57,937 bases of DNA. It comes from a virus. Made by a program: the position numbers and the translations under genes. A model generated the notes under the pieces. That model saw nothing but the letters and a program-made list of their open reading frames with translations. It was not told the origin of the DNA and did not search any database. Location of the stretch: positions 1-57,937 of IMG/VR virus record IMGVR_UViG_3300029135_000007, one strand, 5' to 3'. Positions 1-57,937 of this stretch are shown one piece after another; positions within the stretch are counted from its first letter, which is position 1, and each line of letters starts with the position of its first letter.

Positions 1-99
1 CTGCCAAGACCACGCACGGCGACAGAGACGGCTTCAAAGCCAAGAACTGCAAGGCCAGCAACGGGATGCCCGCTAATAGTCAAACCGATTCCGATAAGC
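1..99. repeat. terminal overlap, copy 1 (identical to 57839-57937); signature of a circular assembly
   Basis: Read directly: the first 99 nt (ctgccaagaccacgcacggc...ccgataagc) recur exactly as the last 99 nt of the window. Confidence 0.97.
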
Positions 100-5172: not shown

Positions 5173-6252
5173 TTAGTAAGCCTTGATGCAGTACACAGCG
5201 TCCATGCGCTCAAAGGACGGCAGGACGATTTCAGAAGCATAGACGTTGGCGTTGACCGGGTGAACGGTCAGTTCGGTGGTGATGGCAACGCCGGTGTTCA
5301 CAATGGACACAGATGCACCAGACTGGCCAGACAGCAGGTCGGCTTCCTCAGGAGTAGTGCCGTACCAGACATTGCCCAGCGCGCCAGCAGGGGTGATAAC
5401 CACCATGCCGTCAGGCAGATACTTCTCGCTTGCACTGTACTGGTCTGCCTTGAACATCTTGTCGTACAGATGGATGGTCAGACCGGTTGCAGATTCGATA
5501 ATCTGCCGTGCTTCAGCGTCCAGCAGAACGGCGTTCGCCTTTGCGGTGACGGTCATGAACCGGTTCTTCACCTCATCCGCAGCAATCATGTTGCGGAAGG
5601 TAGCGGTGTTCATGTACACCTCAGTCACAACATCGCCCACGCTTGCCAGAACAGCATCCTTTGCAGCGTTCAGGTCAGCAATGGGAGTGGCAGTTGCGGC
5701 AGACCATTTGGACTTGGCAACACCACTGATATCCTTGAAGTTGGTAGACTTCCAACCGCCGTCCGGGTCGTAATTGTAGGTGTAGTTCACGCCGTTTGCC
5801 TTGATGGTAATGCCAGGAGCGCCATTGGCGGGAGCCAGCAGCTGCCAGATCATGCGCTCAGGAACGATACGTGCGCCAGTGATAAGCTGTACGGTGTCAT
5901 CGTACAGACGGTTCATCACGTCACGGGCATAGGGGTCGTTGCTGTCCAGAACACGCAGGATTTCCTGACGGTCTTTCTCGCCCAGATGGTAGCCCTCACG
6001 GAAGAACGGCATCTCGGTCTCATCAAACTTGAAGCCCTTACGGGTGCGGAACGTAGCCTTTGCGTCAAATGCGCTGGGCATCAGAGACACGCCCACGCCC
6101 TTGTGACCGCGCAGCCACTTCAGGTCAAGACCGGCCTTCTTCTTAGCGGGGAACAGTGCATCAGATGCAAAGGGCATCGCATTTGTGGGGTCATTCGTCC
6201 AATAGGCGGCAATTGCAGCCGGGGCAAAGACTTCCTTAAGATTCAGTGCCAT
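5173..6252 (-). CDS. major capsid protein (lambda gpE-like family)
   Basis: 359 aa; N-terminus ...FPAKKKAGLDLKWLRG... and C-terminal ...LPDGMVVITPAGALGNVWYGTTPEE resemble major capsid protein E; follows the scaffold and decoration genes. Confidence 0.8.
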   Translation of the reverse strand: MALNLKEVFAPAAIAAYWTNDPTNAMPFASDALFPAKKKAGLDLKWLRGHKGVGVSLMPSAFDAKATFRTRKGFKFDETEMPFFREGYHLGEKDRQEILRVLDSNDPYARDVMNRLYDDTVQLITGARIVPERMIWQLLAPANGAPGITIKANGVNYTYNYDPDGGWKSTNFKDISGVAKSKWSAATATPIADLNAAKDAVLASVGDVVTEVYMNTATFRNMIAADEVKNRFMTVTAKANAVLLDAEARQIIESATGLTIHLYDKMFKADQYSASEKYLPDGMVVITPAGALGNVWYGTTPEEADLLSGQSGASVSIVNTGVAITTELTVHPVNANVYASEIVLPSFERMDAVYCIKAY

Positions 6253-7342: not shown

Positions 7343-7726
7343 TTAGTCGATTAGTTCCCCTGCGCCGTTGTAAACCAGTTCTTCTTTCGCAACATCAGGA
7401 GCGGCGAAAACGGTCGGAACAAGATAGACTGGAACGCCATACAACTTTGCAGCATCAATTTCTACAGTACAGCCGTTATACTGAAAGGCGTTATCGCCGC
7501 AAATGCCGATAAAATAATCAGCCTGTGCGAGAAGTTCGATGCTCTTTCCAAGATACCAAAGCCCTTCAGTTCTGCACTTAGGCGGGTTATCTTCGATATA
7601 GGTCGGGATAACCTCAAGGCTTTCACCGTACACTGCTTCGGCAATCTTGTGCAAACGGTCAAACGTCATCCGAATATTTTCTTCCGACCGATTCTTCATC
7701 GGGCAGGAAATAAACAGCTTCTTCAT
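7343..7726 (-). CDS. nucleoside 2-deoxyribosyltransferase-like / DUF4406-like protein (tentative), in the slot usually held by a minor head protein
   Basis: 127 aa, MKKLFISCPM...LLAQADYFIGICG...EIDAAKLYGVPVYLV pattern; start overlaps the portal stop. Confidence 0.35.
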   Translation of the reverse strand: MKKLFISCPMKNRSEENIRMTFDRLHKIAEAVYGESLEVIPTYIEDNPPKCRTEGLWYLGKSIELLAQADYFIGICGDNAFQYNGCTVEIDAAKLYGVPVYLVPTVFAAPDVAKEELVYNGAGELID

Positions 7727-9225
7727 TTTTGTTCTCCTTCCTTTGTGTTAGTCTGTTCAACAACCATTTTGCCGTTGTTGGCAATATGGTCAGTCGGCTG
7801 TTCCTGCGGTTTCGGAGCTTTGCCATCCTCGCCCAGCTTGCCAGCGGCAATCAGGAAGGGCTTGCTCATTTCGTAAGCAGCCTGTGGGTCGGGGAACAGA
7901 CCGGGCGTAGTAAACGCCAGCTGCGGGTCAATGGTCTGTTGCAACATCTGTGCGAAAATCTGAACTTTGCTCTGTTGGTTATCGTACTGGCGGCGTGGCA
8001 GCTTGATGTTGATGTCACTTGCCATCAGCTTAGAACCAGCCGTGTCCCGCAAGATTTTCAGCATCACAGACAGGCTTTGGCGTTCTGAGAACTTGAACAT
8101 ATTCTCGTACTGCTGCGCCCTTGCTTCGGTGTGATTCCAGCCGTTGCGGACGATAACTGCTCCCACGTTGTCGGATGTTGCGTTCTCGCTGCCAGTGGCA
8201 CTGGGCATAGCGGTCAGGCTGCGGTACACATTCAACATGGAATCAAGCAATGTCTGGCTCTGCTGCTGGTCAAGCTCGTTTGCAAGCTGTGCGACCGAAG
8301 CTGGTTGACCGGAAGATGACTTCAGGCACATTGCGCCCATAGCCTTAACAGCTTTTAAGGCTTCTTCGTCCACAAGGCAGTTGGTAAACACCATGATAGA
8401 CTGAATGAACTGTGCCACGCCGTCCAAACGGTTGCTTTCAAGGTCGTTGATTGCATCCAGCACAGGGATAGCAGGTTCAAACAGACCCATTCGCTCCGGG
8501 TTCAGCTTGTATTCGACCATCGGTAGCATTCCGAGAGAATGGTTCTCCGATTTCGTAACCTTGCCATTGTCGATTTCAAAGTACTGGTTTTGCGTATACA
8601 CACAAATCAGGTCGTTTAGGTCATTCTGATAATTGCGTGGGATGTGCAGCACGTTAGCAATGGGCTTGTGCCCGATGCCGGAGTTGTAAATCACATACGC
8701 CATGTCTGGGTCGGGAACATCTACTAGTAGGGGCGTTTCGTCCGGGTAGTTGCCGCCATACCCCTTGTCAGGAAGAACAATGCGGTATCCCTGTCCGCAC
8801 TCCAACATCCACTGCCAGAGCCGCCGATCAAACGCGTCCTTGCCCTCATACTGCAAGGCATTAGACAGCCGAGCGATTTCCTCACCGTCACCTGTTGCCG
8901 TTTCAGACCGCACATAAGAGCACGGCGTGCCGCTCATATAACCTGTGTAGAAGCCCACACACTCGTTGGCGTGGTTTTCTACAATGCGGTTCGTGATTTC
9001 AGCGTGATATTCCTTCGTGCGGAGGAGGACAGGCTGACTGCCCAAGTAGTAGTTGTGCAGAAAGCGAATCTCATTCTTGTTCAGCAGATGAATAGGCTCC
9101 GCCTTGCCCATGACCACCTTCAGCACGTTTGTTCGATTGATTTCCGTCTCCGGCGTTTCAATCGGTCTGCGTCCGGTCAGCGGATTATTCAAAAAGCCGC
9201 CAACAACCATCTGATACTCAGCCAT
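7723..9225 (-). CDS. portal protein (SPP1 gp6-like)
   Basis: 500 aa; sequence features typical of SPP1-type portals; downstream of terL; RBS aaaggagga. Confidence 0.8.
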   Translation of the reverse strand: MAEYQMVVGGFLNNPLTGRRPIETPETEINRTNVLKVVMGKAEPIHLLNKNEIRFLHNYYLGSQPVLLRTKEYHAEITNRIVENHANECVGFYTGYMSGTPCSYVRSETATGDGEEIARLSNALQYEGKDAFDRRLWQWMLECGQGYRIVLPDKGYGGNYPDETPLLVDVPDPDMAYVIYNSGIGHKPIANVLHIPRNYQNDLNDLICVYTQNQYFEIDNGKVTKSENHSLGMLPMVEYKLNPERMGLFEPAIPVLDAINDLESNRLDGVAQFIQSIMVFTNCLVDEEALKAVKAMGAMCLKSSSGQPASVAQLANELDQQQSQTLLDSMLNVYRSLTAMPSATGSENATSDNVGAVIVRNGWNHTEARAQQYENMFKFSERQSLSVMLKILRDTAGSKLMASDINIKLPRRQYDNQQSKVQIFAQMLQQTIDPQLAFTTPGLFPDPQAAYEMSKPFLIAAGKLGEDGKAPKPQEQPTDHIANNGKMVVEQTNTKEGEQK

Positions 9226-9651: not shown

Positions 9652-9728
9652 TGGACACAAAGGATGGATTTGAACCACCGACCTTCGGGCTATAAACCCG
9701 ACGAGCTACAAGACTGCTCTACTCTGTG
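9652..9728 (-). tRNA. tRNA-Ile, anticodon UAU, CCA encoded
   Basis: Manual cloverleaf: CACAGAG/CTTTGTG acceptor stem (one G-U pair), GAGC/GCTC D stem, TCGGG-TTTATAG-CCCGA anticodon arm, GGTGG-TTCAAAT-CCATC T arm, then T-CCA. The D loop lacks the usual GG. Confidence 0.75.
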
Positions 9729-10153: not shown

Positions 10154-11821
10154 TCAAAATGGCCTCTTGACAGGCTCGATTTTACTGATTCCGTTGTAAA
10201 GTTCATCGGCAAGCTGCGCCAGACTGTCCGGTGCATCATCGTGCGGAACTTTGCCAAGCTGCGTGAACATCGTCACCTGTTCCATGAACGCTTTGTACTC
10301 TTTCAACTGGTGCTTTTCGTCAAGGAAATAGAACCGTTTAATGTCCGGCGCATACTGGATGATTCTGGACAGCTTGCTTTGACCGCTGGGCGCACGCTGG
10401 CTGCGGACAGAGCAGTGATAGCCCTGCTGCCGGAGTTGGCTGTCTACCACATCACAGTATTCATCACCGCCGTTGTTGGCTTCTCCGCGCACCACGTTGA
10501 TTTTATGCTGGATGATTTTGCCCACGACTTCCGGTCTGGTCACGGTCTTATCGCCATTATTGAACACAAGGTCAGGAATGAACACGGCATCGCCGTACAC
10601 ATAGGCGATAGGACAGGCGGTGAAGTCACCGCCGCCCCATGCAATATCCATGACCATGAGCTTGCGATCAGGCTCTCCATCGGGCAGAACGCCGTTGAAA
10701 TACCGCAGTTCATCGGCAGGGAACAGCAATCCTTCACGCACATAAGGCTTACCCATGTACTTTGCCCACCATGTTGCATCGTCAATGCTGGCTTTCATGT
10801 CAGCATAGTAGGCATCGTCAAATCCCACGCCGTAATCATAATTGAAATTGCTGTGCCCGTTCTCGTCCACAGCAGGAATCACCCGGAATCTGTACTTAGG
10901 ATTGTCTGCATACTGGCTTTGGATGCGCCCCAGAGGGTCAAGCACGTTCCAGCGAGTGCCGACCATCAGCTCCAATGCGCCCTGCTTTTTGCGGTCTTTT
11001 AGCTGGTTCAGATAGGCATCGTACTTGTTGTTCAGACGCTCAACGTTTAGGCTTTCTTCCAAGTCCTCGATCAAGTCATCACTGTACAGAACGCCGCCCT
11101 CGCCAATTTCAACAGCACCAGTTAGCGTACCGCCAATGGAGCGGCAAGTAAGGGTAGGGAAGCGCTTTTTACGGTTCAGGTCAACGCTTTCGTCCTTTGA
11201 ACTTTTGTCCACAAGCTGAACATCAGGGAAGATTTTGCCCCAGTTGTAGGTCACAGGGTCAGTGATAATAGACAGCACTTCGCCATAGAAGCCGTTGGTC
11301 AGCTTGTCAGAATGTCCGCTCATAACCGATGCAACGTCCGGTCGGTTGCCCATCAACCATGTAATAAAGAAAATGCACAACGTGGATTTTCCGGTTCTCG
11401 GGGGCTGACTGACCCCAAGAAATTCTACTCGATGGAAAAACAAGTCCTCTAGGTCACGAACCAGCGTCAGAAGCACCTTTCTGCGTGGCTGGTAGAACTT
11501 CTTTTCCGGCGCACGGTTCCATTCAAGGTAGATGCAATAGCTGTCGAACACATCCTTTGCTTCAAACAGGTACGTCCGACCGATAATATCATAAACCTTC
11601 GCCACGTCCTCGCCTGTTTTCATCTTGCCCATCATGGCTGCGCAGACAGAGCGCAGTTCACCAGAGTATTTGTAGGCATCGAACCGCTTGTTTTTCGGCA
11701 GGGCATCTCTCAGGTTCACGACCGCCTGAAACCAGTCCTCGTAGACCTGTGCTTCTGTCGGATTCTGCTTTGCATACGCTTTGATGCTGTCAATGATAGC
11801 GATACACTGTTTTGGCTGCAT
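10154..11821 (-). CDS. terL: terminase large subunit
   Basis: Walker A motif in ...GVSQPPRTGKST...; C-terminal nuclease-like half; start taken at MQPKQCIAIID (ATG 11821); portal gene downstream. Confidence 0.85.
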   Translation of the reverse strand: MQPKQCIAIIDSIKAYAKQNPTEAQVYEDWFQAVVNLRDALPKNKRFDAYKYSGELRSVCAAMMGKMKTGEDVAKVYDIIGRTYLFEAKDVFDSYCIYLEWNRAPEKKFYQPRRKVLLTLVRDLEDLFFHRVEFLGVSQPPRTGKSTLCIFFITWLMGNRPDVASVMSGHSDKLTNGFYGEVLSIITDPVTYNWGKIFPDVQLVDKSSKDESVDLNRKKRFPTLTCRSIGGTLTGAVEIGEGGVLYSDDLIEDLEESLNVERLNNKYDAYLNQLKDRKKQGALELMVGTRWNVLDPLGRIQSQYADNPKYRFRVIPAVDENGHSNFNYDYGVGFDDAYYADMKASIDDATWWAKYMGKPYVREGLLFPADELRYFNGVLPDGEPDRKLMVMDIAWGGGDFTACPIAYVYGDAVFIPDLVFNNGDKTVTRPEVVGKIIQHKINVVRGEANNGGDEYCDVVDSQLRQQGYHCSVRSQRAPSGQSKLSRIIQYAPDIKRFYFLDEKHQLKEYKAFMEQVTMFTQLGKVPHDDAPDSLAQLADELYNGISKIEPVKRPF

Positions 11822-11829
11822 AAAAAAAT

Positions 11830-11863
11830 AGGCACCCCCTACCTGAAAATGTAAAGAGTGCCT
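11830..11863 (-). terminator. hairpin plus T-run immediately upstream of the terL start
   Basis: aggcac...gtgcct stem followed on the minus strand by ATTTTTTT, which runs into the terL ATG. Confidence 0.35.
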
Positions 11864-11892
11864 ACAACTGCACAAAAATCAAATATTCGGTT

Positions 11893-12058: not shown

Positions 12059-12616
12059 TCACCTGTTCTGTTCAGCAATCCGATACCATGTCTGGCGGGT
12101 CACACCAAGCTGTTTGGCAGCATCGGTGACGGTCAGCAAACGTTTTTCCACCTGTTCGTGCAGAATATCAAAGAGGTTGCGGTCATACTCAGTGGGCTTG
12201 CGACCTTTATAAACGCCTTTCTGCTTTGCCACTTCGATACCCTCTTGCTGGCGGTCAAGCATATTCTGTCGTTCAAATTCGTTGATGGCTGCAATCATCG
12301 TCAGCATCAGTTTACCGGTGGGAGTGCCTGTATCTAGGTTTTCTTTATCACTTGCAAGGTGTACGCCGTTAGCTTGTAGCGTTTCGACCATTTCAAGCAA
12401 GTCCTTTGTGCTACGGGCAAGGCGGCTGAAATCGTGGATAAACACGGTATCGCCCGGCTGAACTGATTTAAGCATCTTCTGCAACTCTGGTCTATCCATA
12501 TTCTTGCCAGAGACCTTCTCGATAAACCAACGGTCAATGTTATGCCGCTTCAACGCTTCTACCTGTCGTGCTTCATTCTGTTCGACAGTAGACACACGAA
12601 CATACGCTACGTTCAT
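12059..12616 (-). CDS. small serine recombinase (resolvase/invertase family)
   Basis: 185 aa; N-terminal YVRVSTVEQ catalytic-serine motif, ...DFSRLARS..., C-terminal HTH (LTVTDAAKQLGVTRQTWYR). Confidence 0.9.
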   Translation of the reverse strand: MNVAYVRVSTVEQNEARQVEALKRHNIDRWFIEKVSGKNMDRPELQKMLKSVQPGDTVFIHDFSRLARSTKDLLEMVETLQANGVHLASDKENLDTGTPTGKLMLTMIAAINEFERQNMLDRQQEGIEVAKQKGVYKGRKPTEYDRNLFDILHEQVEKRLLTVTDAAKQLGVTRQTWYRIAEQNR

Positions 12617-12924
12617 TCAGAATCACTGTCCTTTTCAATTACAGTGCCTTCAACACGATAAGCACCAACGCCAATATCTCCCATGTCTGGTTCAACCACG
12701 ATTCGATAATTCATAGCTTTTAAGAGTTTATAAAAGCTAGAAAGATTTAAGCTCTCATTCTTAAAGCACTGATACAAAGCCTGTCTTGAAGTAAAGCCAG
12801 CTTCATTGGCAATATAAGCTGTTGTTATGCCATACTGCTTCATAAGTTCTTTAACTATCTCTACGCCATTCGTTGAAACATTAAAAGGCTCTTTCTTTTC
12901 TGTCACTTTTTTGTATTTCCCCAT
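12613..12924 (-). CDS. HTH DNA-binding protein co-transcribed with the recombinase
   Basis: 103 aa; stop overlaps the recombinase start; low-GC gene; HTH-like ...ITTAYIANEAGFTSRQALYQ... Confidence 0.45.
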   Translation of the reverse strand: MGKYKKVTEKKEPFNVSTNGVEIVKELMKQYGITTAYIANEAGFTSRQALYQCFKNESLNLSSFYKLLKAMNYRIVVEPDMGDIGVGAYRVEGTVIEKDSDSE

Positions 12925-13884: not shown

Positions 13885-14003
13885 TACGTCCGCTAAAGTT
13901 TGCCGACCTGAGCGAGCGTATCATGTAAACCCTGAGAGAAGCATTCTCTCGCCGTTATTATAGCAGAAAATTGCTTCTCTCACAAGTGAAAAGGAGCTTT
14001 TTA

Positions 14004-14786
14004 ATGCAACTTTCTTTGTCTGAGAACATCAAAATCTTCAACAACGCCGAGTTTGGCGAAATCCGCGTCATGCTCATTGACGATGGCCCTTGGTTTGTTG
14101 GCAAGGACATTGCGGTGGCTTTAGGCTACAATAACCCGCAGAAAGCAATCCGTGACCACGTTGATGAACAGGACAGAGGGGTGAACGAAATGGACACCCC
14201 CGGTGGTAAGCAGCCCATTGTCATCATCAACGAATCCGGCCTATACAGTCTGATTTTCAGTAGCAAGCTGGAAAGCGCACAGCGGTTCAAGCACTGGGTC
14301 ACTCACGAGGTCTTGCCGTCCATTCGCAAGCATGGGATGTACATGACCGACAACCTGTTGGAGACGGCTATTGCCAACCCGGACTTTGTGATCGGGCTGA
14401 TTCAAAACATGAAGGCCGAGAAGGAAAAGAGTGCAGCATTGCAGATGCAGAACAAGCAGCTCTACGAGAAGAACGAAGAGATGCAGCCTAAGGCGGACTA
14501 CTTCGATGACCTTGTGGCGTGGAACGTGTCTACCAATTTCCGCTCGACCGCAAAGGAACTGCGCATTCCAGAACGCCTGTTCATCAAGATGCTTATTTCT
14601 GACGGTTACATCTACCGTGACAAGAGCAAGGGCATCCTGCCGAAAGCTGGCAAGGGTGACGGTCTGTTTGCGGTCAAGGAATACTGCAACCAGAAGAACA
14701 AGCACGGTGGCGTACAAACCAGAGTAACGCCGAAAGGTCGTGAGACGTTCCGTCTGCTCTATGCAAGCATCCGTAGAAACGGATAA
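14004..14786 (+). CDS. BRO-N domain antirepressor-like protein
   Basis: N-terminus ...FNNAEFGEIRVMLIDDGPWFVGKDIAVALGY...ESGLYSLIFSSKLESAQRFKHWVTHEVLPSIRKHG is a classic BRO-N domain; the C-terminal half is antirepressor-like. Confidence 0.8.
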   Translation: MQLSLSENIKIFNNAEFGEIRVMLIDDGPWFVGKDIAVALGYNNPQKAIRDHVDEQDRGVNEMDTPGGKQPIVIINESGLYSLIFSSKLESAQRFKHWVTHEVLPSIRKHGMYMTDNLLETAIANPDFVIGLIQNMKAEKEKSAALQMQNKQLYEKNEEMQPKADYFDDLVAWNVSTNFRSTAKELRIPERLFIKMLISDGYIYRDKSKGILPKAGKGDGLFAVKEYCNQKNKHGGVQTRVTPKGRETFRLLYASIRRNG

Positions 14787-15664: not shown

Positions 15665-15845
15665 TTTTGATTCTTCCTTTCTTTGGCGCGTTGCCTTTAG
15701 CTGATTATAACACAATCTAGCCCCCGAAAGGGGTCTTTTTGTATTTTTTGGAATTTTTGGAGACTTGCACAATCAGATGGGGTTTGATTTGTGAAGATGG
15801 GGTAGGTGTTGGCAAGGGAAACGCCTTTTTATGAGTTTCGGAATT

Positions 15846-16100
15846 CGGGAGACTGACCACCCGGCCCCCGGCTCTCCCTGTATACCCTGCCGGTGCACCC
15901 CTGCCCCATCCAGCGCACCAGGAAGGACTACACCGGGCAGGCCGTACTAGATGCAAGGGCAAACCATGCAAGACACGGCGCACCGACACACACGCCCGGA
16001 CGCTGGACACGCTGCATCGGTCTGCACCCGATACCAGACCGCCCACGCTGGGCAGATCGTAACGGCGGCGGGCGGGCAGTGTGTCCGATAGGGCACGCCC
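15846..16100. other. GC-rich ORF-free block A
   Basis: By eye about two-thirds G+C, against roughly half in the flanks. Only short implausible Arg/Pro/Cys-rich ORFs. Shares collinear short blocks with 17830-18316. Confidence 0.5.
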
Positions 16101-17642: not shown

Positions 17643-17700
17643 CCCCGCTTCGGCGGGGCTTTTCTTTTGCCTTGCATCGACTGATGCAGGGCTTTTATTT
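17643..17700 (+). terminator. tandem rho-independent terminators ending the plus-strand cassette
   Basis: ccccgc-ttcg-gcgggg followed by cttttctttt, then ccttgcatc...gatgcaggg followed by cttttattttt. Confidence 0.7.
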
Positions 17701-18310
17701 TTGCCCGGCGGCGCGTGAGCGGCTCACGAGCATTTACAGCGGTCTTTCTGCCGTCAATGCAATTATACGTCCAAAACACCAAAACCGTTTATAGAGCTTT
17801 ACAGCGGCATTTCCGTTAATTTGACCCATTCCAGCGCACACAATACAGCCGCCAAACAAGCCGCCTATACGCCAACTGCGCCACGCTGGAGGGCATACCC
17901 TCAAGCGCAGCACCTGCACCGATACCAGATACCGCCGCAACACCGGACACTGTACAGGGCAGGGTCGCCCCCTATTATAATAAGGTATATAAGGGTGCAG
18001 CTGTGCGCCCGTGTCGTGGATCCATGCCCGGCGGTGCAACATAGCGCAGACCATGCCAGCCTGGCGGCGGTCTGCTCCTACCGTCTGCGGATTGCTGGCA
18101 AGCGCTGACACACTGTCAGCAGTACAGACCCGGTGCACCTTCTGAGGGGTGCAGCGTCTCCACCTGTACAAGGTCAGCCCGGCGGCTTGCGATTTGGCAC
18201 CGGGTCAGCCTGGCGCCCTCCACCCGGCGGGGCAGTCAAGTGGCAGGGGCGCGGCGGGCGGCGCGGAACCATTGACGGCTACCGCCGCATCCCTTTTCGG
18301 GCTTTCGCCC
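17700..18310. other. GC-rich ORF-free block B
   Basis: High G+C by eye; multiple hairpins (gcagacc...ggtctgc, ctgaca-cac-tgtcag); only an implausible 145-aa Arg/Cys/Trp-rich ORF. Confidence 0.5.
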
Positions 18311-18902
18311 GATAGCCAATAGAGGTCAGCAATAGTCGCAGCGTTCCGGCTGGAATAGTCGTGGAATAGTCGTAAAATCGTCAGACAACCGCCGTTTGAA
18401 AGTCCCATATATAGTATAGTAACGAGTTGCCCGCTGATAGTCGCAGAGTAATATTCGTAGCGTTTTCTTGCGAGCTATCGTCAAATAGTCGTGTATTTTT
18501 TGTGTGAAATAGTCGTTCGTCTTTTAGAGAAAGAGAGGTGCGATAGTCGCTAAGTCATCAGACCACATAAAATTCATAATCCATTGCATATATTCACTCA
18601 TTTATTCACTCACTAGCCATACCAAATTCATATGCCAACCGTACTTATTATAATATACACTTATATATCCTAGTAACTATCTAGGGATTATTCTGCTAAA
18701 ATAGTCGTATCATCCGATTTGGTCTGTTCCTGCTCGATTTAATTCCCAGCAATGTGCTATGATATTTCAACTAATCCATACTACTTTGCTATGAATAGTT
18801 ATACCTGATAGTCGCAGTCAAGTTATGCAACATTTGTACATATCCAGCCGACTACAAAATGAAGTCAATTCTCCATGTGAAATAGTCGCAGATGGTGATA
18901 GG

Positions 18903-18941
18903 CTAGATGCTGCTACCCTTTTCAGACTAGATGCTGCTACC
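18903..18941 (+). repeat. 15-bp direct repeat ctagatgctgctacc x2, separated by 9 nt
   Basis: Read directly at 18903-18917 and 18927-18941. Confidence 0.9.
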
Positions 18942-19203
18942 GTTGAAGGTCACCCGGTCGGCGCGGTGCGCCGGACGATAGAGGGTGACGTAACGTAGAG
19001 GTTAGCTGGACGGTATGCCTATATTCAGCCAATAGAACCTGACGGTAAATGCCGGTCACGGTCTGGCCTGCTGGCTAACGGTATAGCTTTTGGAGATAGA
19101 GGGTTGTAGGGGGAAAGAACCTTTGCAAAGCATTTGGTTATCGTTTTCAGTTGTCGCAGTTGTCGCACCATTTTGGCGCGGGGGCCTCAAACAATTTATT
19201 TGT

Positions 19204-19275
19204 TTGAGGGGGGAGTTAGGGGGATTATAGGGGGTAATAGGGGTTGTAGGGGAAAGAGGGGGAAGAAAGGGGGGA
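19204..19275 (+). repeat. cluster of seven G4-G6 tracts (TAGGGG(G)-type), potential G-quadruplex region
   Basis: gaggggggagttagggggattatagggggtaataggggttgtaggggaaagagggggaagaaagggggg, plus an upstream copy ttgtaggggga at 19104. Confidence 0.8.
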
Positions 19276-19424
19276 AGATTGGATGTTTTTGCAATGTAAC
19301 ACCACTTTGCGCTGATAGTCGCAGCCGTTTTGTCTCATGCGCTTCGCTTTCGTCTCAATCTGCCCTGTGACTAGACGAATCTTTCTCAAATCCAGACCTT
19401 GCCGTTTTCCCCTGATAAATAACA

Positions 19425-19485
19425 AGAGAAAAAAGCACGGAATAGTCGCAGAGGGTAGTTTTACTACCTGACACCATTCCATGCT
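19425..19485 (-). terminator. rho-independent terminator for gene 19523..19825
   Basis: Outer stem agcacggaat/attccatgct (one G-T pair), inner hairpin ggtagt-ttt-actacc, T-run on the minus strand. Confidence 0.55.
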
Positions 19486-19522
19486 TTCTGATACAGTAGT
19501 TTTGTAGTCGTACGAGCTAAGA

Positions 19523-19825
19523 TTAGATATTCTTGGCTTCTCTCGCCTTACGCAGACGCTCTGCCAGTGCTTCACGCTGCTCTTCGCTAATCTCACGAGT
19601 GACAGGCGGCCGGAACTTCACAAGACGTTTCGGCATCGAATAGGTCTTGGATTCCTTGCACCGCTTGGCAGACAGCTCCGCCATAAACTTGTATGTATCG
19701 GGGAACTGCTCACAGAGCTTGTCCAGTTTGCGAATGTAAACTGGGTCTGCCGTGTAGATTTCTGCGGTATCTTCCGCTGCGTTGAAGTTGATGATAGTCT
19801 CACGTTCGATGTTGGCAAGTGCCAT
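19523..19825 (-). CDS. hypothetical protein (100 aa)
   Basis: Start taken at MALANIERETIINF; track ORF 19523..19891. Confidence 0.5.
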   Translation of the reverse strand: MALANIERETIINFNAAEDTAEIYTADPVYIRKLDKLCEQFPDTYKFMAELSAKRCKESKTYSMPKRLVKFRPPVTREISEEQREALAERLRKAREAKNI

Positions 19826-20718: not shown

Positions 20719-21942
20719 TCACATCCATACGCATTCTTTGAACTGCTGGGTCTCCATCTGAAACGTGATGTCCAGTGACCCTACGTTGCCCTCTTTGTTC
20801 TTTTCAAGCGCAAAGTGATAATGTTGCTCTGGCCTCTTTTTCGTGGTCACGTTCTGTGCCAGCAGAATGATTGCATCTGCGTCCTGTTCAATCTGTCCGC
20901 TCTCTCGCAGGTCTGCGGCAGTCGGTGGAATGCCTGTTCTTGCTGTCTCTCGATTGAGCTGCGCAAGAGCTATCACCAGTGTTCCTGTGGACTGTGCGAA
21001 CTCATGCAGCGCCATGCTGATTTCCGTTACGGCACTGTATCGGTCTTTTGCTCCGGCTTGATGGATAAGCTGCAAATAGTCGATGAACACCACTTTTGCC
21101 TGCATCCTGATGGACTGCGTTCTAATCCACCCAACGCTCTTACCGGCGGCAGAGCGGACGTACAGCGGATATTTCTTGATGGCTGCCAGTCGGTCAAGCT
21201 CGTCAATTCTGACGGTTTTGTTTTTGACCGTGTGCAGCGGTACGCCTAGCTGGTTTGCTATGATACGAGCGTAGAGCGTGTCCGGGTCGGTCTCTAGGCT
21301 GAAATACGCCACCTTGCGTCCGTTCTTGGCTATTTCACAGGCAAGTTGCAGGGATAGAGCAGTTTTACCGGCAGACGGTCTGCCGCCGATCACAACGAAG
21401 TTGCCCAGCACAAGATGCAAGTTGTTGTCCAGCACTTTAAGCCCTGTGCTGATATACTCCGGCTTATCATCCAGCCTGCGAATGTAATTGTCTATGCCAT
21501 CGCACATTGGGATGAAATCACTTCTCTCGCTGTGCAGGTTGATTGCTTCGCCTAGCTGTTCATAAATGCCTGTCAGGTCTGCGTATCTGGTCGAGCCATC
21601 AACGATTTTAAACGCAAGCTCTCTGGCTCTGGACAATGCTGCCTGTTCTTTGACGATTCCAGCCCATCCAAGCATCATGTCATGTGTGACGTTGCGGATA
21701 AACTCCGCACCGAAGGCATCAAGGCATTCACCCATTGCTTTCTTGCAGTTATCGTACCGCCCCATGACTTCTACCGGGTTCCACTTGTCGTTGTGTTCCC
21801 AATAGCCACGAATGGCGGCGAATGTATCACGCAGTTCAGGACAGAAATCGTCGATTTTAAGGTCTTGCAGCACATCGGCGTATTCCGAGAACGTAAGGGC
21901 TGCCCCCAGCAGGATGTATTGGGTCTGATTTTCAATATTCAC
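20719..21942 (-). CDS. DnaB-like replicative helicase
   Basis: Walker A in ...GGRPSAGKTALSLQLA...; ...IDYLQLI... and ...LAQLNRE... motifs of the DnaB C-terminal domain. Confidence 0.85.
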   Translation of the reverse strand: MNIENQTQYILLGAALTFSEYADVLQDLKIDDFCPELRDTFAAIRGYWEHNDKWNPVEVMGRYDNCKKAMGECLDAFGAEFIRNVTHDMMLGWAGIVKEQAALSRARELAFKIVDGSTRYADLTGIYEQLGEAINLHSERSDFIPMCDGIDNYIRRLDDKPEYISTGLKVLDNNLHLVLGNFVVIGGRPSAGKTALSLQLACEIAKNGRKVAYFSLETDPDTLYARIIANQLGVPLHTVKNKTVRIDELDRLAAIKKYPLYVRSAAGKSVGWIRTQSIRMQAKVVFIDYLQLIHQAGAKDRYSAVTEISMALHEFAQSTGTLVIALAQLNRETARTGIPPTAADLRESGQIEQDADAIILLAQNVTTKKRPEQHYHFALEKNKEGNVGSLDITFQMETQQFKECVWM

Positions 21943-22607
21943 CGCAGAAAGTCTCCCTCGTCAGGCAATTCAGCCATTGTCTGCTGATAGCCACCGTTCC
22001 AGTCCTTCACGTTACGCATCCAGTTCCGTGCAGCAGCTTTCCAGTCTTTCATAGGCGACTTGCCGACTTTCCAGCCATTCGCCGTGAAATGGTCAACGAA
22101 CCGTTCTGCTTCTGATTCTATGTAACCCTTTTCCGCAAAGTATTCTTTGGCTTGCTCGATAGTTGGTGACTTGAAGCGTTTGACTGCGTTGGTATTTTTC
22201 TTTTCACATTTTTCTTTTTTATCAGATTCAGATACAGAATCAGATACAGATAAGGCATCGTTTGCATCCATTTGCATATTTTGCATACCAGTGTATGCGT
22301 TTGCATCATTTGTATGCGTTTGTATGCACTTGCATTTTTCATCGTTCCAACGCTTATTTGCACTCCGTCTGTTTTTCTCAATTCGCTCCTGTCTTTTCTG
22401 TGCATTCATATCATCGAACGCCTTAACAACCTTCCAGAGCATCCGCATAGCACGGTCGTTGTCGTATGCTGGCTCAAGTCCAGTCTCAACATACTGTGCA
22501 TAGTTGCGGACGAATGCTCCAAATTCCTCGTCTGTCAGCTCGTCCATTGCATGGACGTGCTCCAACAGGAGAATCATTGATGTTCTCGGCTTGTGTTCCT
22601 GCTCCAT
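21939..22607 (-). CDS. replication organizer / helicase-loader-like protein (DnaD-type, tentative)
   Basis: Translationally coupled upstream of the dnaB-like gene. Two-domain protein joined by a low-complexity linker that is encoded by DNA repeats. Start taken at MEQEHK (ATG 22607). Confidence 0.5.
   Translation of the reverse strand: MEQEHKPRTSMILLLEHVHAMDELTDEEFGAFVRNYAQYVETGLEPAYDNDRAMRMLWKVVKAFDDMNAQKRQERIEKNRRSANKRWNDEKCKCIQTHTNDANAYTGMQNMQMDANDALSVSDSVSESDKKEKCEKKNTNAVKRFKSPTIEQAKEYFAEKGYIESEAERFVDHFTANGWKVGKSPMKDWKAAARNWMRNVKDWNGGYQQTMAELPDEGDFLR
22222..22335. repeat. short direct repeats inside the organizer gene (TCAGAT(ACAGA) x3; TTGCAT x5; GTATGC x3): candidate lytic origin
   Basis: tcagattcagatacagaatcagatacaga and tttgcatccatttgcatattttgcataccagtgtatgcgtttgcatcatttgtatgcgtttgtatgcacttgcat, read directly. 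Confidence 0.5.
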
Positions 22608-22609
22608 AT

Positions 22610-22840
22610 TCAATCCTCTTTGTAGCGTTTGTTCCATGCTTCGATAAGGTCTTTTTTAACCTTTTCTTTATCAGCTTCGGAGCAATCAGAGCTGTATAGC
22701 TTGCTTTCCATGAATACCCGGCACTTACATCCATTTTTGCCGTTTCCTCTTGTTATAAGCATCCAGCTTGTCAAATAGTCGCCTGCTTCTGCAATGGCAA
22801 CTTTCCCGCCGCAGAACGGGCATCTTTTGAGTTCTGTCAT
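22610..22840 (-). CDS. lar: Lar-family restriction alleviation protein (zinc ribbon)
   Basis: LKRCPFCGG near the N-terminus and ...LIEAWNKR near the C-terminus, the Lar-family signature. Confidence 0.6.
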   Translation of the reverse strand: MTELKRCPFCGGKVAIAEAGDYLTSWMLITRGNGKNGCKCRVFMESKLYSSDCSEADKEKVKKDLIEAWNKRYKED

Positions 22841-23254: not shown

Positions 23255-23488
23255 CTACACCATCGGAAACGCCATCCAATGCGTCACCGTCACATCTTTC
23301 GGCAGTCTCTCGCCTATCTCGTCCCAGAACTGACCGTCTGCGTAACAGCCAAGAAAGTACGCTGTTGGCGAGATTCCTTGCAACATTTTTCCATCTTTAT
23401 CATGCCACGTTTTCTTAGTCGCAAGCAACAAAGGCTGCGTCCGCTCTCGTGGTGGTTCGCTTGCTGGATGCCAGGATGTATTAGCCAT
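23255..23488 (-). CDS. DUF551-like protein
   Basis: Start taken at MANTSWHPASEPP; C-terminal ...VTVTHWMAFP motif. Confidence 0.5.
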   Translation of the reverse strand: MANTSWHPASEPPRERTQPLLLATKKTWHDKDGKMLQGISPTAYFLGCYADGQFWDEIGERLPKDVTVTHWMAFPMV

Positions 23489-23550
23489 TGCCTTTTCTCC
23501 TTTCAATCTCCTTGCAAACCGCCTTGTAAAACGTATCCCACGTCTCATAA

Positions 23551-23715
23551 TCACAGGAATTTCCAGCCCTGCGACAAGGTGTTCTGCTCAACGCCTCGTG
23601 CGGAATAAACAACTCCGACATACCCAACAGGCACTCTCTCCAAACACAGCAAAAGAAATGCCGCAACAAGAAACGATGCTGCCACAGAAGAAATAATAGT
23701 TGCTACTTTTTTCAT
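23551..23715 (-). pseudogene. SPFH/band-7 (prohibitin-like) N-terminal fragment, 54 codons
   Basis: MKKVATIISSVAASFLVAAFLLLCLERVPVGYVGVVYSARGVEQNTLSQGWKFL then a stop. This is a TM helix plus the start of an SPFH domain; the rest of the domain is missing. Confidence 0.35.
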
Positions 23716-23718
23716 GTT

Positions 23719-23799
23719 TTACTCCTTATCGTTAAAATTGTTGATAATCAAAAAAGCTACCGCCCAAGATAATAAGAAGAAAGCTATGAGTTCTTTCAT
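23719..23799 (-). CDS. possible small membrane peptide (26 aa)
   Basis: ATGA overlap with the terS-like stop; MKELIAFFLLSWAVAFLIINNFNDKE. Confidence 0.25.
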   Translation of the reverse strand: MKELIAFFLLSWAVAFLIINNFNDKE

Positions 23800-24548
23800 T
23801 CTTCCGTTACCTCTCTGTACTCCACTTCAATCTCCTTCGGCAAAGCCGTCTGGTACTTCTGAGCCAACTGTTCTGCGCTCTGGGCATCGCCCAACGGCTG
23901 TTCCGGCGGTGCAACGGTGACTTCCACGTTGTCACGCATACCAAAGTAGTTCTTGGCTCGGAAAATCCACTCTGCCGGGTTCTCCTGACCGTACATACCG
24001 TTGTATGCCCACATGGACTGCATTTGCAGAATCAGCTTCAAGATGTACTTCTGCTGCAAGCTGTCGTCACGGCGTTTGCCTGTCATAATCTGTCTCAGGC
24101 TCACCCATTCGATGCCAAGCACTAGTGCAATCCATTCCACCACAGGGGAGATTCTGGCTTCGATGCAAGCGTCAAAGAAGAAGTCAAGGCGTTGCTGTAC
24201 CTCAATGGGGTTGTTCATGTCCACGCTCGGAAGGTCGCCAAAATACTTGGCTGCAATCATGCCGATGACTTTCTTATCCTCTTCGTCACCAATTCTTGAC
24301 TGCAAATCGCCTGTGCTCATCATCTTTGACTTCTCGATAGCCAACTCTTGTTGTTCTTTCACCTTTTTACTCACCTGTGAGCGGATAGATTTCCGCTTGT
24401 TAAGCATCTGTTGTTTTTTCTTCTCACGTTCTTTCTCACGCTTCGCAGCGGCTTCTTCTTTCGCCTTTTGCGCTCGCTTCTCACGCTTTTTCTTTTCAGC
24501 TTCGGTCAGCGGCGGTCTGCCACGACCACGCTTCGGGGGTGTTGCCAT
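23796..24548 (-). CDS. terS: terminase small subunit-like protein
   Basis: Basic N-terminus; ...RLDFFFDACIEARISPVVEWIALVLGIEWVSLRQ... and ...NPAEWIFRAKNYFGMRD... resemble TerS HTH and oligomerisation motifs. It lies about 12 kb upstream of terL. Confidence 0.55.
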   Translation of the reverse strand: MATPPKRGRGRPPLTEAEKKKREKRAQKAKEEAAAKREKEREKKKQQMLNKRKSIRSQVSKKVKEQQELAIEKSKMMSTGDLQSRIGDEEDKKVIGMIAAKYFGDLPSVDMNNPIEVQQRLDFFFDACIEARISPVVEWIALVLGIEWVSLRQIMTGKRRDDSLQQKYILKLILQMQSMWAYNGMYGQENPAEWIFRAKNYFGMRDNVEVTVAPPEQPLGDAQSAEQLAQKYQTALPKEIEVEYREVTEE

Positions 24549-24551
24549 GTG

Positions 24552-24926
24552 TCAAACCTCCTTTGGCGGTTCAGGAAGATACGCCCAATGAGTTACATCT
24601 CCAAATACAATGTACTCGTCGTGCTCTTGCCATAGTCCGTCATAAGATAAAAATGCAATTTCAATGCCGAACTTTTCTCTTTTTACGAGAACTTCTTTGT
24701 CTTTTTCGGGTAAAACTTTTTTGGCATCAAACCATATATTGGCGGGCTCAGATTTTTCCAATACGTTGGCTAAATCTAAAAACACATCTCCAATGCTACT
24801 TCTGATTTGTCCTTGTATGTATACGATTAAGTTTTTGCTATCCAAAAACGGCTTCGCTTCATTCTTTTTGTCAACGCCAACAGTTTTCCACGCCGCAATG
24901 ATTGGGTCAACATCAACCAGTTTCAC
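24552..24926 (-). CDS. DUF551-like protein
   Basis: C-terminal ...FGDVTHWAYLPEPPKEV motif. Confidence 0.5.
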   Translation of the reverse strand: MKLVDVDPIIAAWKTVGVDKKNEAKPFLDSKNLIVYIQGQIRSSIGDVFLDLANVLEKSEPANIWFDAKKVLPEKDKEVLVKREKFGIEIAFLSYDGLWQEHDEYIVFGDVTHWAYLPEPPKEV

Positions 24927-35143: not shown

Positions 35144-35929
35144 TCAGTCCTCCCATCCTCCGAAATCTTGCTGTTCTGCAACAGCCCTGGTCTCGATTCT
35201 CGGCGTGATGCCAAGCTTCTTGAGTTGCTCATGGATGAGCTTTTCACCCTCGACCGTCCAGACCGTTGTATTTGGAATGTAAGTCTTGCCGTTAGAGCGC
35301 TGAATGGCCTTGCCCTTGCGGTTCTTGGTGTAGCCCTTACCCTGATAGGGTTTGTACAGCACCCACTGACCATCGCTGTCTTTGTACTGGACTCGCTGGC
35401 TGTAAAGCAGCTTGTTCAGCTTTTCAGCAGTCAAACCGTAGTCCTTTGCGATGCTGGTGGCTGTCCGGCAGTTGTCTGCAATACACACGGCCCTGGCAAA
35501 CTCTGCATCCGGTGTCAGCTCTGCAATCCGTTTGTCCTTCTCTTCCAGCTCTTCGTGCGCTGCGATCAGCGCAGTTGCAAGGAGCTGTGAGCGGGTAAGC
35601 TGCGGTGCGTTGTAGCTTCCAGTCTTACGGATTGCAGGAAGCACATCGTTCGTTACCCATCTGCGGAACGGTGCCGCTTCTGACTTGTCGCTGCGGAGGA
35701 TGACGTGGTACAAACCGCTCTCGTTGACAATTACCATTTCCTGTTTGCCGCCAAGGGTGTCAATCAGGCTGACACCCTTTTCGTCATCATCTAATCGGTC
35801 AGCAGCCATGCGGTTATTGCTAATACCAAGCACAGCGCACACGTCTTTCAGAACGAACCATGCTTCGCCGTCCATATCAACCGTGCGAACTTTGCTGTTC
35901 TGATATTCAAAAACTTGAATGTTTGCCAT
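35144..35929 (-). CDS. BRO-N / KilAC-type phage antirepressor
   Basis: N-terminus ...FEYQNSKVRTVDMDGEAWFVLKDVCAVLG...ESGLYHVILRSDKSEAAPFRRWVTNDVLPAIRKTG; C-terminal half is KilAC-like (...ATSIAKDYGLTAEKLNKLL...). Confidence 0.8.
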   Translation of the reverse strand: MANIQVFEYQNSKVRTVDMDGEAWFVLKDVCAVLGISNNRMAADRLDDDEKGVSLIDTLGGKQEMVIVNESGLYHVILRSDKSEAAPFRRWVTNDVLPAIRKTGSYNAPQLTRSQLLATALIAAHEELEEKDKRIAELTPDAEFARAVCIADNCRTATSIAKDYGLTAEKLNKLLYSQRVQYKDSDGQWVLYKPYQGKGYTKNRKGKAIQRSNGKTYIPNTTVWTVEGEKLIHEQLKKLGITPRIETRAVAEQQDFGGWED

Positions 35930-38224: not shown

Positions 38225-38295
38225 TTGTCGAATTATCGCAGTTTTTGAAGAACATTTTGTCCACTTTTTGTACACCTATCGGGCGAATTCGCCTT

Positions 38296-38410
38296 GTCAT
38301 TCCGTCCCCCATAGGCTATGAATCGACAACATTTGCGCGGAATAAATAACGTAGTAGCGATAATATATAGCTTGCATTTAATCGGCTCGTCAATCCGTCC
38401 CCCATAACAC
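38296..38410 (-). repeat. two inverted iteron cores GTCCCCCAT (38304-38312, 38397-38405) with the flanking repeat cactttttgtacac (38262, 38431)
   Basis: Read directly; these are reverse complements of the ATGGGGGAC iteron core. Confidence 0.75.
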
Positions 38411-38500
38411 CGGCTCAAAAGTTTTTCATACACTTTTTGTACACGTTAGATAAGACTAATCATTGCCGGAAAGACTTTATTCAGCAAATGGAAGGTTGAG

Positions 38501-38509
38501 TTATCCACA
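38501..38509 (+). promoter_or_regulatory. DnaA box, perfect consensus TTATCCACA
   Basis: gagttatccacaagc, read directly; followed by a roughly 90-bp AT-rich stretch (38520-38612). Confidence 0.7.
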
Positions 38510-38614
38510 AGCTGGAATGGGAAAATAAAGAAATTGTTGAAAATTATCGTCATCGCCTATTTAACGATGATATTTAACCTCTTGTTTATTTCTTGTTTAA
38601 TATATAATATGTAG

Positions 38615-38725
38615 ATGGGGGACGAAATGACAAAGCATGGGGGACGTTTTGACAAGTCACGGGGGACGTTTTGACGACCCTATGGGGGACAAAAAGACAA
38701 ACCATGGGGGACGGAGTGTATTGAC
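38615..38725 (+). repeat. five direct 22-bp iterons (A(T/C)GGGGGAC-N13), plasmid-type oriV
   Basis: Starts at 38615, 38637, 38659, 38682 and 38704 (spacing 22, 22, 23, 22), directly upstream of the rep promoter. Confidence 0.9.
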
Positions 38726-38749
38726 TTGTCCCCCGGTCTGTGCTATACT
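38721..38749 (+). promoter_or_regulatory. rep promoter TTGACT-17-TATACT with an inverted iteron core in the spacer
   Basis: ttgact tgtcccccggtctgtgc tatact; GTCCCCC at 38728-38734 suggests Rep autoregulation. Confidence 0.6.
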
Positions 38750-38778
38750 GTTTTTGGGCTGATAAAGGAGGCGAACAG

Positions 38779-39873: not shown

Positions 39874-40644
39874 ATGGCAAAAATCATAGCTGTCGCCAAC
39901 CAGAAAGGCGGCACAGGAAAGACTACCACAAGCACCTGTCTAGCAGGTGCGTTGCAGTTGCTTGGCAAGAAGGTGTTGCTGGTGGACTGCGATGCCCAGT
40001 GCAACGCAACGGACACCTACGGCGCACAGACAGAGGATGTGTGTACCCTGTTCGATGTAATGACCCGGCAAGGAACAGTGGAAGAAGGAATCCAGCACTG
40101 CGAAGCCGGTGACATTCTGCCGTCAGACAACGCATTGAAGGACATTGACGAGCAGCTTGTCCGGGACATGGGCAAGAACTTCCGGCTGCGAGAAGCCCTT
40201 GAAAGCGTGTCTGGGCAGTATGATTACATTGTGTTGGACACTCCCCCGCAGCTTGGTCTTGCGCTTGTGAATGCGCTGATCGCCGCTAACAGCATCATCG
40301 TGCCCATTACAGCAGACCGATATGCGCTTGCCGGATTGAGCCAGCTTTCGCAGACCATTGGTGACGTTCGCAGATACTTCAATCCGACTTTGAAGATTGA
40401 AGGTCTGCTTCTAAACCAGTACAAGAGCCGTGAGAACCTGTCCAAAGAGGTCGTAGAGCAGCTTCCTGTGATTGCAGAAAGTATGGGAACAAGGCTGTTG
40501 GACGTGAAGATTAGACCATCTATGGGCGTTCGTAAGGCGCAGGCAGAGCGGCACAGCCTGTTTAGTGGTGACACGGCAAAGAGTACAAGCGCAGAGGACT
40601 TCAAGGCGTTGGCGAAGATGATTGTAGAGGGGAAAGAAAAATGA
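39874..40644 (+). CDS. parA: ParA/Soj-family partition ATPase
   Basis: Deviant Walker A in MAKIIAVANQKGGTGKTTT...; ...VLLVDCDAQ...; 15 nt downstream of rep. Confidence 0.9.
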   Translation: MAKIIAVANQKGGTGKTTTSTCLAGALQLLGKKVLLVDCDAQCNATDTYGAQTEDVCTLFDVMTRQGTVEEGIQHCEAGDILPSDNALKDIDEQLVRDMGKNFRLREALESVSGQYDYIVLDTPPQLGLALVNALIAANSIIVPITADRYALAGLSQLSQTIGDVRRYFNPTLKIEGLLLNQYKSRENLSKEVVEQLPVIAESMGTRLLDVKIRPSMGVRKAQAERHSLFSGDTAKSTSAEDFKALAKMIVEGKEK

Positions 40645-57838: not shown

Positions 57839-57937
57839 CTGCCAAGACCACGCACGGCGACAGAGACGGCTTCAAAGCCAAGAACTGCAAGGCCAGCAAC
57901 GGGATGCCCGCTAATAGTCAAACCGATTCCGATAAGC
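57839..57937. repeat. terminal overlap, copy 2 (identical to 1-99)
   Basis: Read directly. Confidence 0.97.

Follow-up and report, generated by a model that had tools for sequence, protein, structure and literature searches.

The heptad array and its noncoding surroundings

The DNA analyzed here, termed the window, is the complete 57,937-nucleotide stretch of IMG/VR virus record IMGVR_UViG_3300029135_000007, which is a phage-plasmid, i.e., a tailed-phage genome combined with a plasmid module. Between its genes for a presumed small terminase subunit (terS; positions 23796 to 24548, minus strand) and for the large terminase subunit (terL; 10154 to 11875, minus strand; phrog_38, E = 2e-54), a noncoding stretch (17700 to 19522) holds an array of the heptamer ATAGTCG, which lies on the border between the early operon on one side and the cargo and late genes on the other and is a candidate recognition region for the packaging enzyme. 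The hexamer TAGTCG was found 13 times on the plus strand at 18333 to 19510; 12 of these 13 copies are part of ATAGTCG, and six copies show the longer form ATAGTCGCAG. The 12 heptads, all in the same orientation and all within 1.1 kb, are irregularly spaced, with 11 to 433 bp between copies. Seven of them form a left cluster on the plus strand (18332 to 18549; heptads starting at 18332, 18355, 18366, 18437, 18485, 18509, and 18543), which is followed by an AT-rich spacer (18550 to 18800, 33% GC) with three more widely spaced heptads in and beside it (18701 to 18888, plus strand; starting at 18701, 18808, and 18882). The right-hand copies (19315 to 19510, plus strand) comprise ATAGTCGCAG at 19315 and 19442 and a TAGTCG at 19505. 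In addition, degenerate copies are present, namely GTTGTCGCA (twice, at 19148 to 19165, plus strand, where the tandem copies CAGTTGTCGCA constitute repeat family D3), CTATCGTCA, and GAATAGTTA, as is a lone inverted TAGTCG (18849 to 18854, minus strand), which belongs to an 11-nucleotide inverted repeat with 19500 to 19510 (repeat I22).

Across the whole window, ATAGTCG was observed 16 times, compared to 3.54 ± 2.10 times in dinucleotide-preserving shuffles, and none of 100 shuffles reached 16 copies; the 12 same-strand copies within 1.1 kb are therefore far above chance. Outside the array, TAGTCG is not enriched (nine copies, with about 14 expected for the whole window), and two of the isolated copies lie at 21077 and 22776. 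A preliminary description of this DNA, made from the letters alone, had reported 13 plus-strand hexamers, six longer-form copies, degenerate copies and one inverted copy, irregular spacing of 11 to about 430 bp, and isolated copies near 21078 and 22776; recounting reproduced all of these, and the comparison with composition-matched shuffles bore out the enrichment. Its statement that one copy lies within the terminator hairpin of gene 19523 to 19825 was not reproduced, as a terminator scan revealed no minus-strand intrinsic terminator after that gene. Separately, the TAGTCG copies outside 18300 to 19520 are distributed 8:1 between the plus and minus strands, an asymmetry within the top 0.6% of hexamers with at least eight copies, whereas AGTCG in the same part of the window shows no skew (27:21). 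The 8:1 bias may reflect avoidance of inverted copies.

The array is retained among close relatives of the window. IMG/VR contains at least 238 contigs with a replisome-organizer gene more than 90% identical to that of the window, and three human-fecal "Bacteriophage sp." records match it as well; no annotated or cultured close relative was found in phage and plasmid collections. All relatives with sufficient flanking sequence keep 9 to 16 same-strand copies at the equivalent place while the neighboring genes vary, so that the preliminary description's suggestion of looking for the array in homologous elements was answered in its favor. In an alignment of 72 distinct family sequences, the motif columns are 0.884 identical, compared to 0.695 for the other columns. 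Each heptad of the left cluster is conserved at 0.87 to 0.99, the heptad at 18882 at 0.98 (flanks, 0.62), that at 19315 at 0.97 (flanks, 0.58), and that at 19442 at 0.98; the heptad at 18808 is poorly conserved (0.18). This pattern indicates that the motif positions of the array are under selection. In relatives that have no DUF6291 replisome organizer and share only about 50% identity in DnaB, 14 to 17 copies are still present. Because the array is kept when the DnaB/organizer module is swapped, the replication proteins are unlikely to be the readers of the motif.

The region does not encode protein. The mechanically called open reading frames (ORFs) of the array region are open in only 2, 15, 26, and 50 of the 72 relatives, respectively, the last being struck by 107-nucleotide indels, and only 154 of 787 indels in the region are multiples of three; the earlier assertion that no credible ORF exists here thus stands. 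Upstream of the array lies a GC-rich block (17730 to 18330, 62 to 68% GC) that is only 73 to 85% conserved in the family and in which single-base indels predominate and codon periodicity is absent. RNAalifold, applied to 40 sequences of this block, yielded no convincing structure (−4.5 kcal/mol). The block was accordingly rejected as a coding sequence or a structured RNA. Its last 75 nucleotides (18255 to 18330), which touch the first heptad, form a conserved junction block (87 to 96%). A second, short GC-rich island (62 to 67% GC) occurs in the cargo region at 15800 to 16100.

Further elements were recognized around and inside the array. An AT-rich palindromic element, CCTATTATAATAAGGTATATA, i.e., CCTATTATAATAA(G/T)GTATATA, is located within the GC-rich block (17966 to 17986, plus strand); it is promoter-like, with a −10 sequence TATAAT, and reads toward the array. 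In 40 aligned sequences it has a single variable base (G or T, the 14th), and its flanks are 73 to 85% identical. A related element was noted at 18640 to 18675. Within the 433-bp gap of the array, a G-rich block of TAGGGG repeats (19175 to 19290, plus strand) is conserved at 0.88 to 0.93 over 19175 to 19254, with a GC skew of +0.6 across 19100 to 19290. The same gap contains a segment (18895 to 19014) with a 21-nucleotide direct repeat (AGGCTAGATGCTGCTACCCTT and AGACTAGATGCTGCTACCGTT), which is an insertion, since 70 to 75% of the relatives do not have it.

These surroundings bear on the proposal that the motif acts in RNA, with a noncoding sponge or scaffold transcript from the promoter-like element at about 17975 (and/or that at 18650) presenting AUAGUCG repeats to an RNA-binding protein. 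The near-invariant −10-like CCTATTATAATAAGGTATATA pointing into the array from poorly conserved surroundings, together with the length of the ORF-free region, would fit such a transcript. On the other hand, Rfam searches over 15.5 to 19.7 kb, both at gathering thresholds and at E ≤ 1, returned nothing relevant, the only hit being a chance-level small-RNA match at the terminators; neither an Rfam match nor a covarying conserved structure was found, the RNAalifold result pointing the same way. Moreover, the distant arrays described below overlap or abut the 3′ end of terS on the antisense strand, after a sense-strand terminator, and may consist of contiguous heptads (ATAGTCGATAGTCG), as in protein-bound DNA repeats. 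We therefore consider an RNA role for the motif very doubtful.

Arrays beside terS in distant phages

The terS-like gene is predicted to encode a protein of 250 amino acids with an N-terminal KRGRGRPP sequence and charged helix followed by a P22-gp3-like domain, in which an HTH (helix-turn-helix)-like stretch, PVVEWIALVLGIEWVSLRQI, and the motif FRAKNYFGM were found. The homologue P0033 is 37% identical to the window protein (E = 2e-37); this protein and three other homologues (P0034, P0036, and P0040) score 36 to 51 bits on Pfam PF16677, "DNA-packaging protein gp3" (cutoff, 29.4), and also match phrog_606, "terminase small subunit." The assignment of the window protein to PF16677 thus rests on transitive homology. 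An AlphaFold model of the protein (mean pLDDT [predicted local distance difference test], 76.6) has as its three top matches in the PDB the small terminase gp3 of P22 (3p9a; probability, 0.82 to 0.85; TM [template modeling] score, 0.40 to 0.57; E of about 1), and the BFVD matches at E values of 1e-8 to 7e-4 are nearly all small terminases or gp3 proteins. A profile search of PDB sequences with the TerS family gave only weak HTH matches. A protein 96% identical to that of the window has already been named TerS, and no other TerS candidate was found beside terL. Based on homology and the modeled fold, we conclude that 23796 to 24548 encodes the TerS of this phage. The family is large, comprising 4,475 clusters at 50% identity (E ≤ 1e-3).

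When IMG/VR was scanned by motif only, for three closely spaced copies of ATAGTCG, many distant phages were recovered whose TerL is 33 to 40% identical to that of the window. In these phages the array adjoins a 26 to 39% identical homologue of gene 23796 to 24548 and is invariably on the opposite strand. Some arrays without a nearby terS belonged to members of the window family, in which terS is several kilobases off and beyond the fetched locus; the other such arrays, i.e., the non-family cases that were inspected, proved to be mostly tandem coding repeats. Since a motif-based search is biased, 53 loci were chosen by protein similarity alone, ignoring the motif, from GTDB genomes and metagenome-assembled genomes (MAGs) as well as from ENA and Logan assemblies. 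Clusters of four or more AGTCG copies in the expected orientation were present in 29 of these 53 loci, and none of the loci had such a cluster in the opposite orientation. In 28 of the 29, the cluster begins no more than about 220 bp from the 3′ end of the terS-like gene; in the 29th (L283), as in the window, a DnaB module intervenes, and the cluster follows 5.2 kb downstream. Only five further AGTCG clusters were detected elsewhere in the 53 loci. An additional locus (L434), found via TerL alone, has the same terS-array layout.

The consensus of the distant arrays is A-(A/T)-AGTCG-Y, and individual elements use their own version of the motif, ATAGTCG, AAAGTCG, or AGAGTCG. The median copy number is eight, and some arrays are built of contiguous heptads such as ATAGTCGATAGTCG. 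Other clades have other repeats at the position of the array, e.g., GCTTTCTGC (8 copies) or GAAAGTTACAT (17 copies). Arrays also occur on chromosomal contigs of 180 to 630 kb, which resemble integrated prophages. G-runs beside the arrays are not general among the distant loci. The MAG contigs of related phages with differing motifs all bear Clostridia-type labels, and a search for hosts via TerL returned only MAG labels of Bacillota and Bacteroidales; such arrays are widespread in gut Firmicutes phages. A literature search of incomplete coverage revealed no earlier description of such arrays, which are apparently new to the literature.

The variation of the motif matters for the idea that it is a polar signal for a DNA translocase or nuclease of host or phage, comparable to Chi, KOPS, or SRS, concentrated at the array and co-oriented genome-wide. 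The uneven strand distribution (8:1) of TAGTCG in the rest of the window, a skew of AGTCG outside the arrays in distant loci, and the occurrence in some loci of FtsK/SpoIIIE-domain genes after the terS-like gene could be taken to favor it. However, the motif differs among related phages that all carry Clostridia-type labels, which argues against one conserved host reader, and the skew, based on small numbers, may partly reflect codon usage, as most genes lie on one strand. We regard this idea as far-fetched. The FtsK/SpoIIIE-domain genes, located directly after the terS-like gene and an intergenic region, were seen in L284 (5993 to 6712) and L287, both of which lack an AGTCG array.

The gene order of the distant group is terS-like gene, array, 0.3 to 3.4 kb of often oppositely oriented cargo, serine recombinase, terL, and portal. 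In the window, a small serine recombinase gene (12059 to 12616, minus strand; PF00239, E = 1e-42) is likewise found directly upstream of terL, next to a gene for an XRE-like HTH protein (12613 to 12924), also upstream of terL. Recombinases of the resolvase/invertase type (about 185 to 196 amino acids, 24 to 60% identity) occupy this position across the distant group (L284 to L335 and L434), which is an unusual place for such a gene. One locus (L303) has eight array copies and no recombinase between terS and terL; because of this case, the recombinase is not required for the presence of an array.

With this neighborhood in mind, the array might instead be bound by another phage protein, i.e., the XRE-like HTH protein, the serine recombinase (the repeats serving as accessory sites), or a repressor, and would then act as a regulatory insulator or roadblock where the early operon meets the cargo and late genes. 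The "stoperators" of cluster A mycobacteriophages are an example of asymmetric sites in a common orientation at which transcription is blocked. In every case, the array marks the close of the early operon and precedes the late one, and within this interval the recombinase and an HTH103-like gene turn up repeatedly; the array of L285 follows an intrinsic terminator. Against this stand the L303 array without a recombinase, the detection of HTH103 homologues in a few loci only, and the distance of about 5.4 kb between the window array and the start of the late operon; the consistent neighbor of the array is terS. On balance, a reader other than the terminase seems unlikely, yet it deserves to be kept in mind.

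Replication and partition modules of the phage-plasmid

An exact 99-bp direct repeat at the termini of the window (1 to 99 and 57839 to 57937) shows that the record is a circular or circularly permuted assembly, and because of this exact overlap its true length is about 57,838 bp (57.8 kb). The phage part includes genes for the major head protein (5173 to 6252) and the portal (7723 to 9225), and a tRNA-Ile gene (anticodon TAT; 9652 to 9728, minus strand) lies between those for the portal and terL. The cargo genes (about 13 to 17.7 kb) end in two plus-strand terminators (17643 to 17700). On the other side of the array, the early operon (19523 onward, minus strand) comprises a phrog_1709 gene and genes for a methyltransferase, DnaB (20719 to 21942), a DUF6291 replisome-organizer-like protein (21939 to 22637), a Lar-like protein, and others. 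The plasmid module contains genes for a Rep3-type initiator (38740 to 39858), ParA (39874 to 40644), and a protein with a C-terminal ribbon-helix-helix (RHH) domain (NikA/TacA-like; within 41033 to 41605). Ahead of the Rep3 gene lie 22-bp iterons of its own, TGACAAAGCATGGGGGACGTTT (38290 to 38716; three to four direct copies at 38615 to 38716 and inverted copies at 38291 to 38312 and 38384 to 38406), which mark the element as a phage-plasmid with a separate plasmid origin. Downstream of ParA and upstream of the RHH domain, within the mechanical ORF 41033 to 41605, a 10-bp AAGCC repeat, iterated about 21 times (41107 to 41313), forms a candidate partition centromere; given its 10-bp period, this block is not a coding repeat, and the ORF probably overstates the length of the actual RHH gene. 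As the Rep3 and par modules possess these separate repeats, the heptad array is neither the Rep3 iteron set nor the obvious centromere.

Some further genes were also noted. Two paralogues of a Bro-N/KilAC anti-repressor are encoded on opposite strands (13971 to 14786, plus, and 35144 to 35929, minus), and three genes encode DUF551 domains (23255 to 23554, for which the Pfam match is marginal at E = 0.067; 24552 to 24926; and 40641 to 41036), the last of them between parA and the RHH gene.

Both modules invite alternative roles for the array. It could be a lytic replication origin, with the heptads as iterons, an AT-rich unwinding element, and the DUF6291 organizer or DnaB as partner, or else an array for titration of an initiator. 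The direct repeats do flank the 33%-GC segment 18550 to 18800 and lie near the genes for DnaB and the organizer-like protein. However, the same array is present in relatives with a DnaB of only 50% identity and an organizer that is missing or only 46% identical, the distant arrays abut terS and are several kilobases from replication genes of other types (e.g., a PriCT_2 primase-helicase), and the Rep3 initiator has its different, own iterons 20 kb away. The heptads thus neither sit nor co-vary with an initiator gene, as the repeats of an iteron origin would, and an origin or titration function is accordingly judged quite improbable. Alternatively, the plasmid prophage might use the array as a centromere for partition by its ParA system, as the element carries Rep3 and ParA and centromeres often are short direct-repeat arrays. 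Yet the par operon (39.9 to 41.6 kb) is 20 kb away and has the AAGCC block by its RHH gene, and terS-adjacent arrays are found on the large chromosomal contigs of apparent integrated prophages; the array is not adjacent to the par operon, and such arrays are probably not restricted to par-bearing elements, so that we give this possibility hardly any weight. Taken together, these comparisons show that the array is independent of the replication and partition modules.

Proposed recognition by the terminase and comparison with known systems

How small terminases recognize viral DNA is still unsettled. In our interpretation, to which we assign a probability of roughly 0.6, the array is a cis-acting, pac-like recognition region for the packaging enzyme, multivalent and polar, which marks the start of packaging. 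The comparative data indicate that it is co-inherited with the TerS family, in fixed orientation and between terS and terL, in very distant phages; location in the packaging module, inheritance with TerS, and a single polarity are what a pac- or cos-type site would show. An oligomeric TerS would bind several co-oriented A-T-AGTCG-Y heptads simultaneously, bending or wrapping the DNA about its ring, and TerL, the presumed nuclease and motor, would be recruited and cut nearby, with the polarity of the heptads setting the direction of packaging. The identity of TerS as the binder, its multivalent binding, and the cleavage, packaging start, and direction at the array are all steps that we infer. 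The median of about eight copies resembles the subunit number of TerS rings, an analogy that is suggestive only. The preliminary description had proposed a multisite landing pad for a sequence-specific DNA-binding protein, which fits the evidence, and had named four candidate functions. Among these, a pac or TerS region is favored by the co-occurrence, in fixed orientation, with a P22-gp3-like TerS gene, whereas the ParA centromere is disfavored by the remote par module with its own 10-bp repeats and by the chromosomal arrays, and the initiator titration array or origin by the separate 22-bp iterons of Rep3 and by an array unchanged in a swapped DnaB module; the long RNA finds no backing in Rfam or RNAalifold.

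A number of observations weigh against recognition by the terminase. The window TerS itself reaches no Pfam or PHROG model, and an hhalign comparison of the TerS profile with P22 gp3 is colinear but statistically weak (P = 0.03). No AGTCG array was found in 24 of the 53 distant terS-like loci, some of which have no obvious repeat at all. The association between TerS clade and motif type is weak (permutation p = 0.039; nearest neighbor of the same type in 20 of 28 cases) and could stem from shared ancestry alone, and inspection of the HTH-like region of TerS by eye disclosed no clear co-variation with the motif type. In the window, 4.3 kb separate the array from terS and 6.5 kb from terL, and its copies are scattered over 1.2 kb; these distances arise because replication and cargo genes intervene, and in the window lineage the replication genes came to lie between terS and the array. 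To our knowledge, an array of 1.2 kb exceeds every characterized pac or cos recognition region. Furthermore, the in vitro binding of most characterized TerS proteins to their pac DNA is weak and shows little specificity (PMC9611059).

Information on DNA ends is available from one cultured relative, the only one found, Clostridium phage Maintenon, a distant TerS relative whose annotated TerS shares 38% identity with P0034 of the family and for which a 478-bp direct terminal repeat at 27,277 was reported from PhageTermVirome (PMC10197239). In the GenBank frame of the 57,045-bp record, this repeat covers the 3′ end of terS and the next intergenic DNA; when the record is reversed, the repeat is placed immediately upstream of terL, so that it falls into the terS-terL interval either way. 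The frame is uncertain, as the published cos of the sister phage Amboise falls in an integrase gene (GenBank frame). Maintenon itself carries a two-copy 14-bp repeat but lacks an AGTCG array. In the window family, seven independent contigs or records end at 19147 to 19267, from both sides, in the region of the G-rich TAGGGG block, and more than 70 contigs read through this block. These contig ends could represent a physical DNA end or an assembly break. In a test for a terminal repeat, a conserved G-rich 20-mer was scanned for in IMG/VR and occurred once per contig, mostly internally.

If the array is read by TerS, a family of about 4,500 clusters would be paired with an obvious polar 7-bp repeat whose sequence varies by clade, offering a directly testable substrate for multivalent-ring or DNA-wrapping models. 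The array would predict the packaging signal of a human-gut phage-plasmid lineage that is very common, as well as that of many Clostridia prophages, might help to locate genome termini and to interpret transduction, and could be used for packageable vectors in gut Firmicutes that are hard to manipulate. For annotators seeking terS or the packaging module in uncultivated phages, it would provide a simple DNA signature. A bolder version, which we consider improbable, is that the heptad array, the P22-gp3-like TerS, and the serine recombinase together form an undescribed packaging-initiation system, in which the TerS ring is placed by multivalent heptad contacts and the recombinase, instead of or together with TerL, processes the concatemer or plasmid multimer at this site. 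If true, this would supply the disputed model that DNA wraps around TerS with a naturally occurring substrate of strong specificity.

The closest formal analogue of the array is found in T7, which likewise has same-strand, irregularly spaced 7-bp repeats in noncoding DNA at its packaging and terminus region. A check of the T7 sequence located CCTAAAG 11 times within the initial 340 bp and 5 times at the right end, in no case inverted; the window array shares this character of co-oriented, irregularly spaced heptamers. The T7 repeats are called SRL and SRR and are tied to concatemer processing. They differ from the present case in their motif and terminase family, and in that the T7 arrays of about 170 bp are directly beside the 160-bp terminal repeat, compared to the 1.2 kb covered here.

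Terminase recognition from several short repeats or contact points is also known from P1, whose pac contains seven hexanucleotide repeats (PMC11260489), and from lambda cosB and SPP1 pacL and pacR, where several TerS contact sites flank the cut site (PMC11260489, PMC9611059). These sites, in contrast, measure 100 to 300 bp, are located beside or inside the terminase genes, and are served by unrelated TerS families; recognition in P1 depends on the methylation state, and none of them has 12 or more copies over 1.2 kb. With P22, the window shares the protein family of its TerS (gp3, PF16677). P22 has an asymmetric pac site within the 3′ portion of terS (gene 3), and the distant arrays likewise start in or just past the 3′ end of terS; the P22 site differs in being a single 22-bp site on the coding strand. 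Nine functional P22 pac-like sites in Salmonella have the consensus AAGnT...TCTGnnnTC (PMC11260489). The sequence AAGTCG in P22 pac was considered as a sign of shared recognition and rejected as a coincidence, because these nine sites do not conserve those bases. Finally, plasmid iterons and repeat centromeres resemble the array in being direct repeats of 7 to 22 bp that are bound cooperatively by a dedicated protein, and some of the distant arrays, too, consist of contiguous heptads. The heptads of pSM19035 bound by the omega protein are an example of a repeat centromere. Iterons and centromeres, however, sit beside rep or par genes, whereas the ATAGTCG array follows terS instead.

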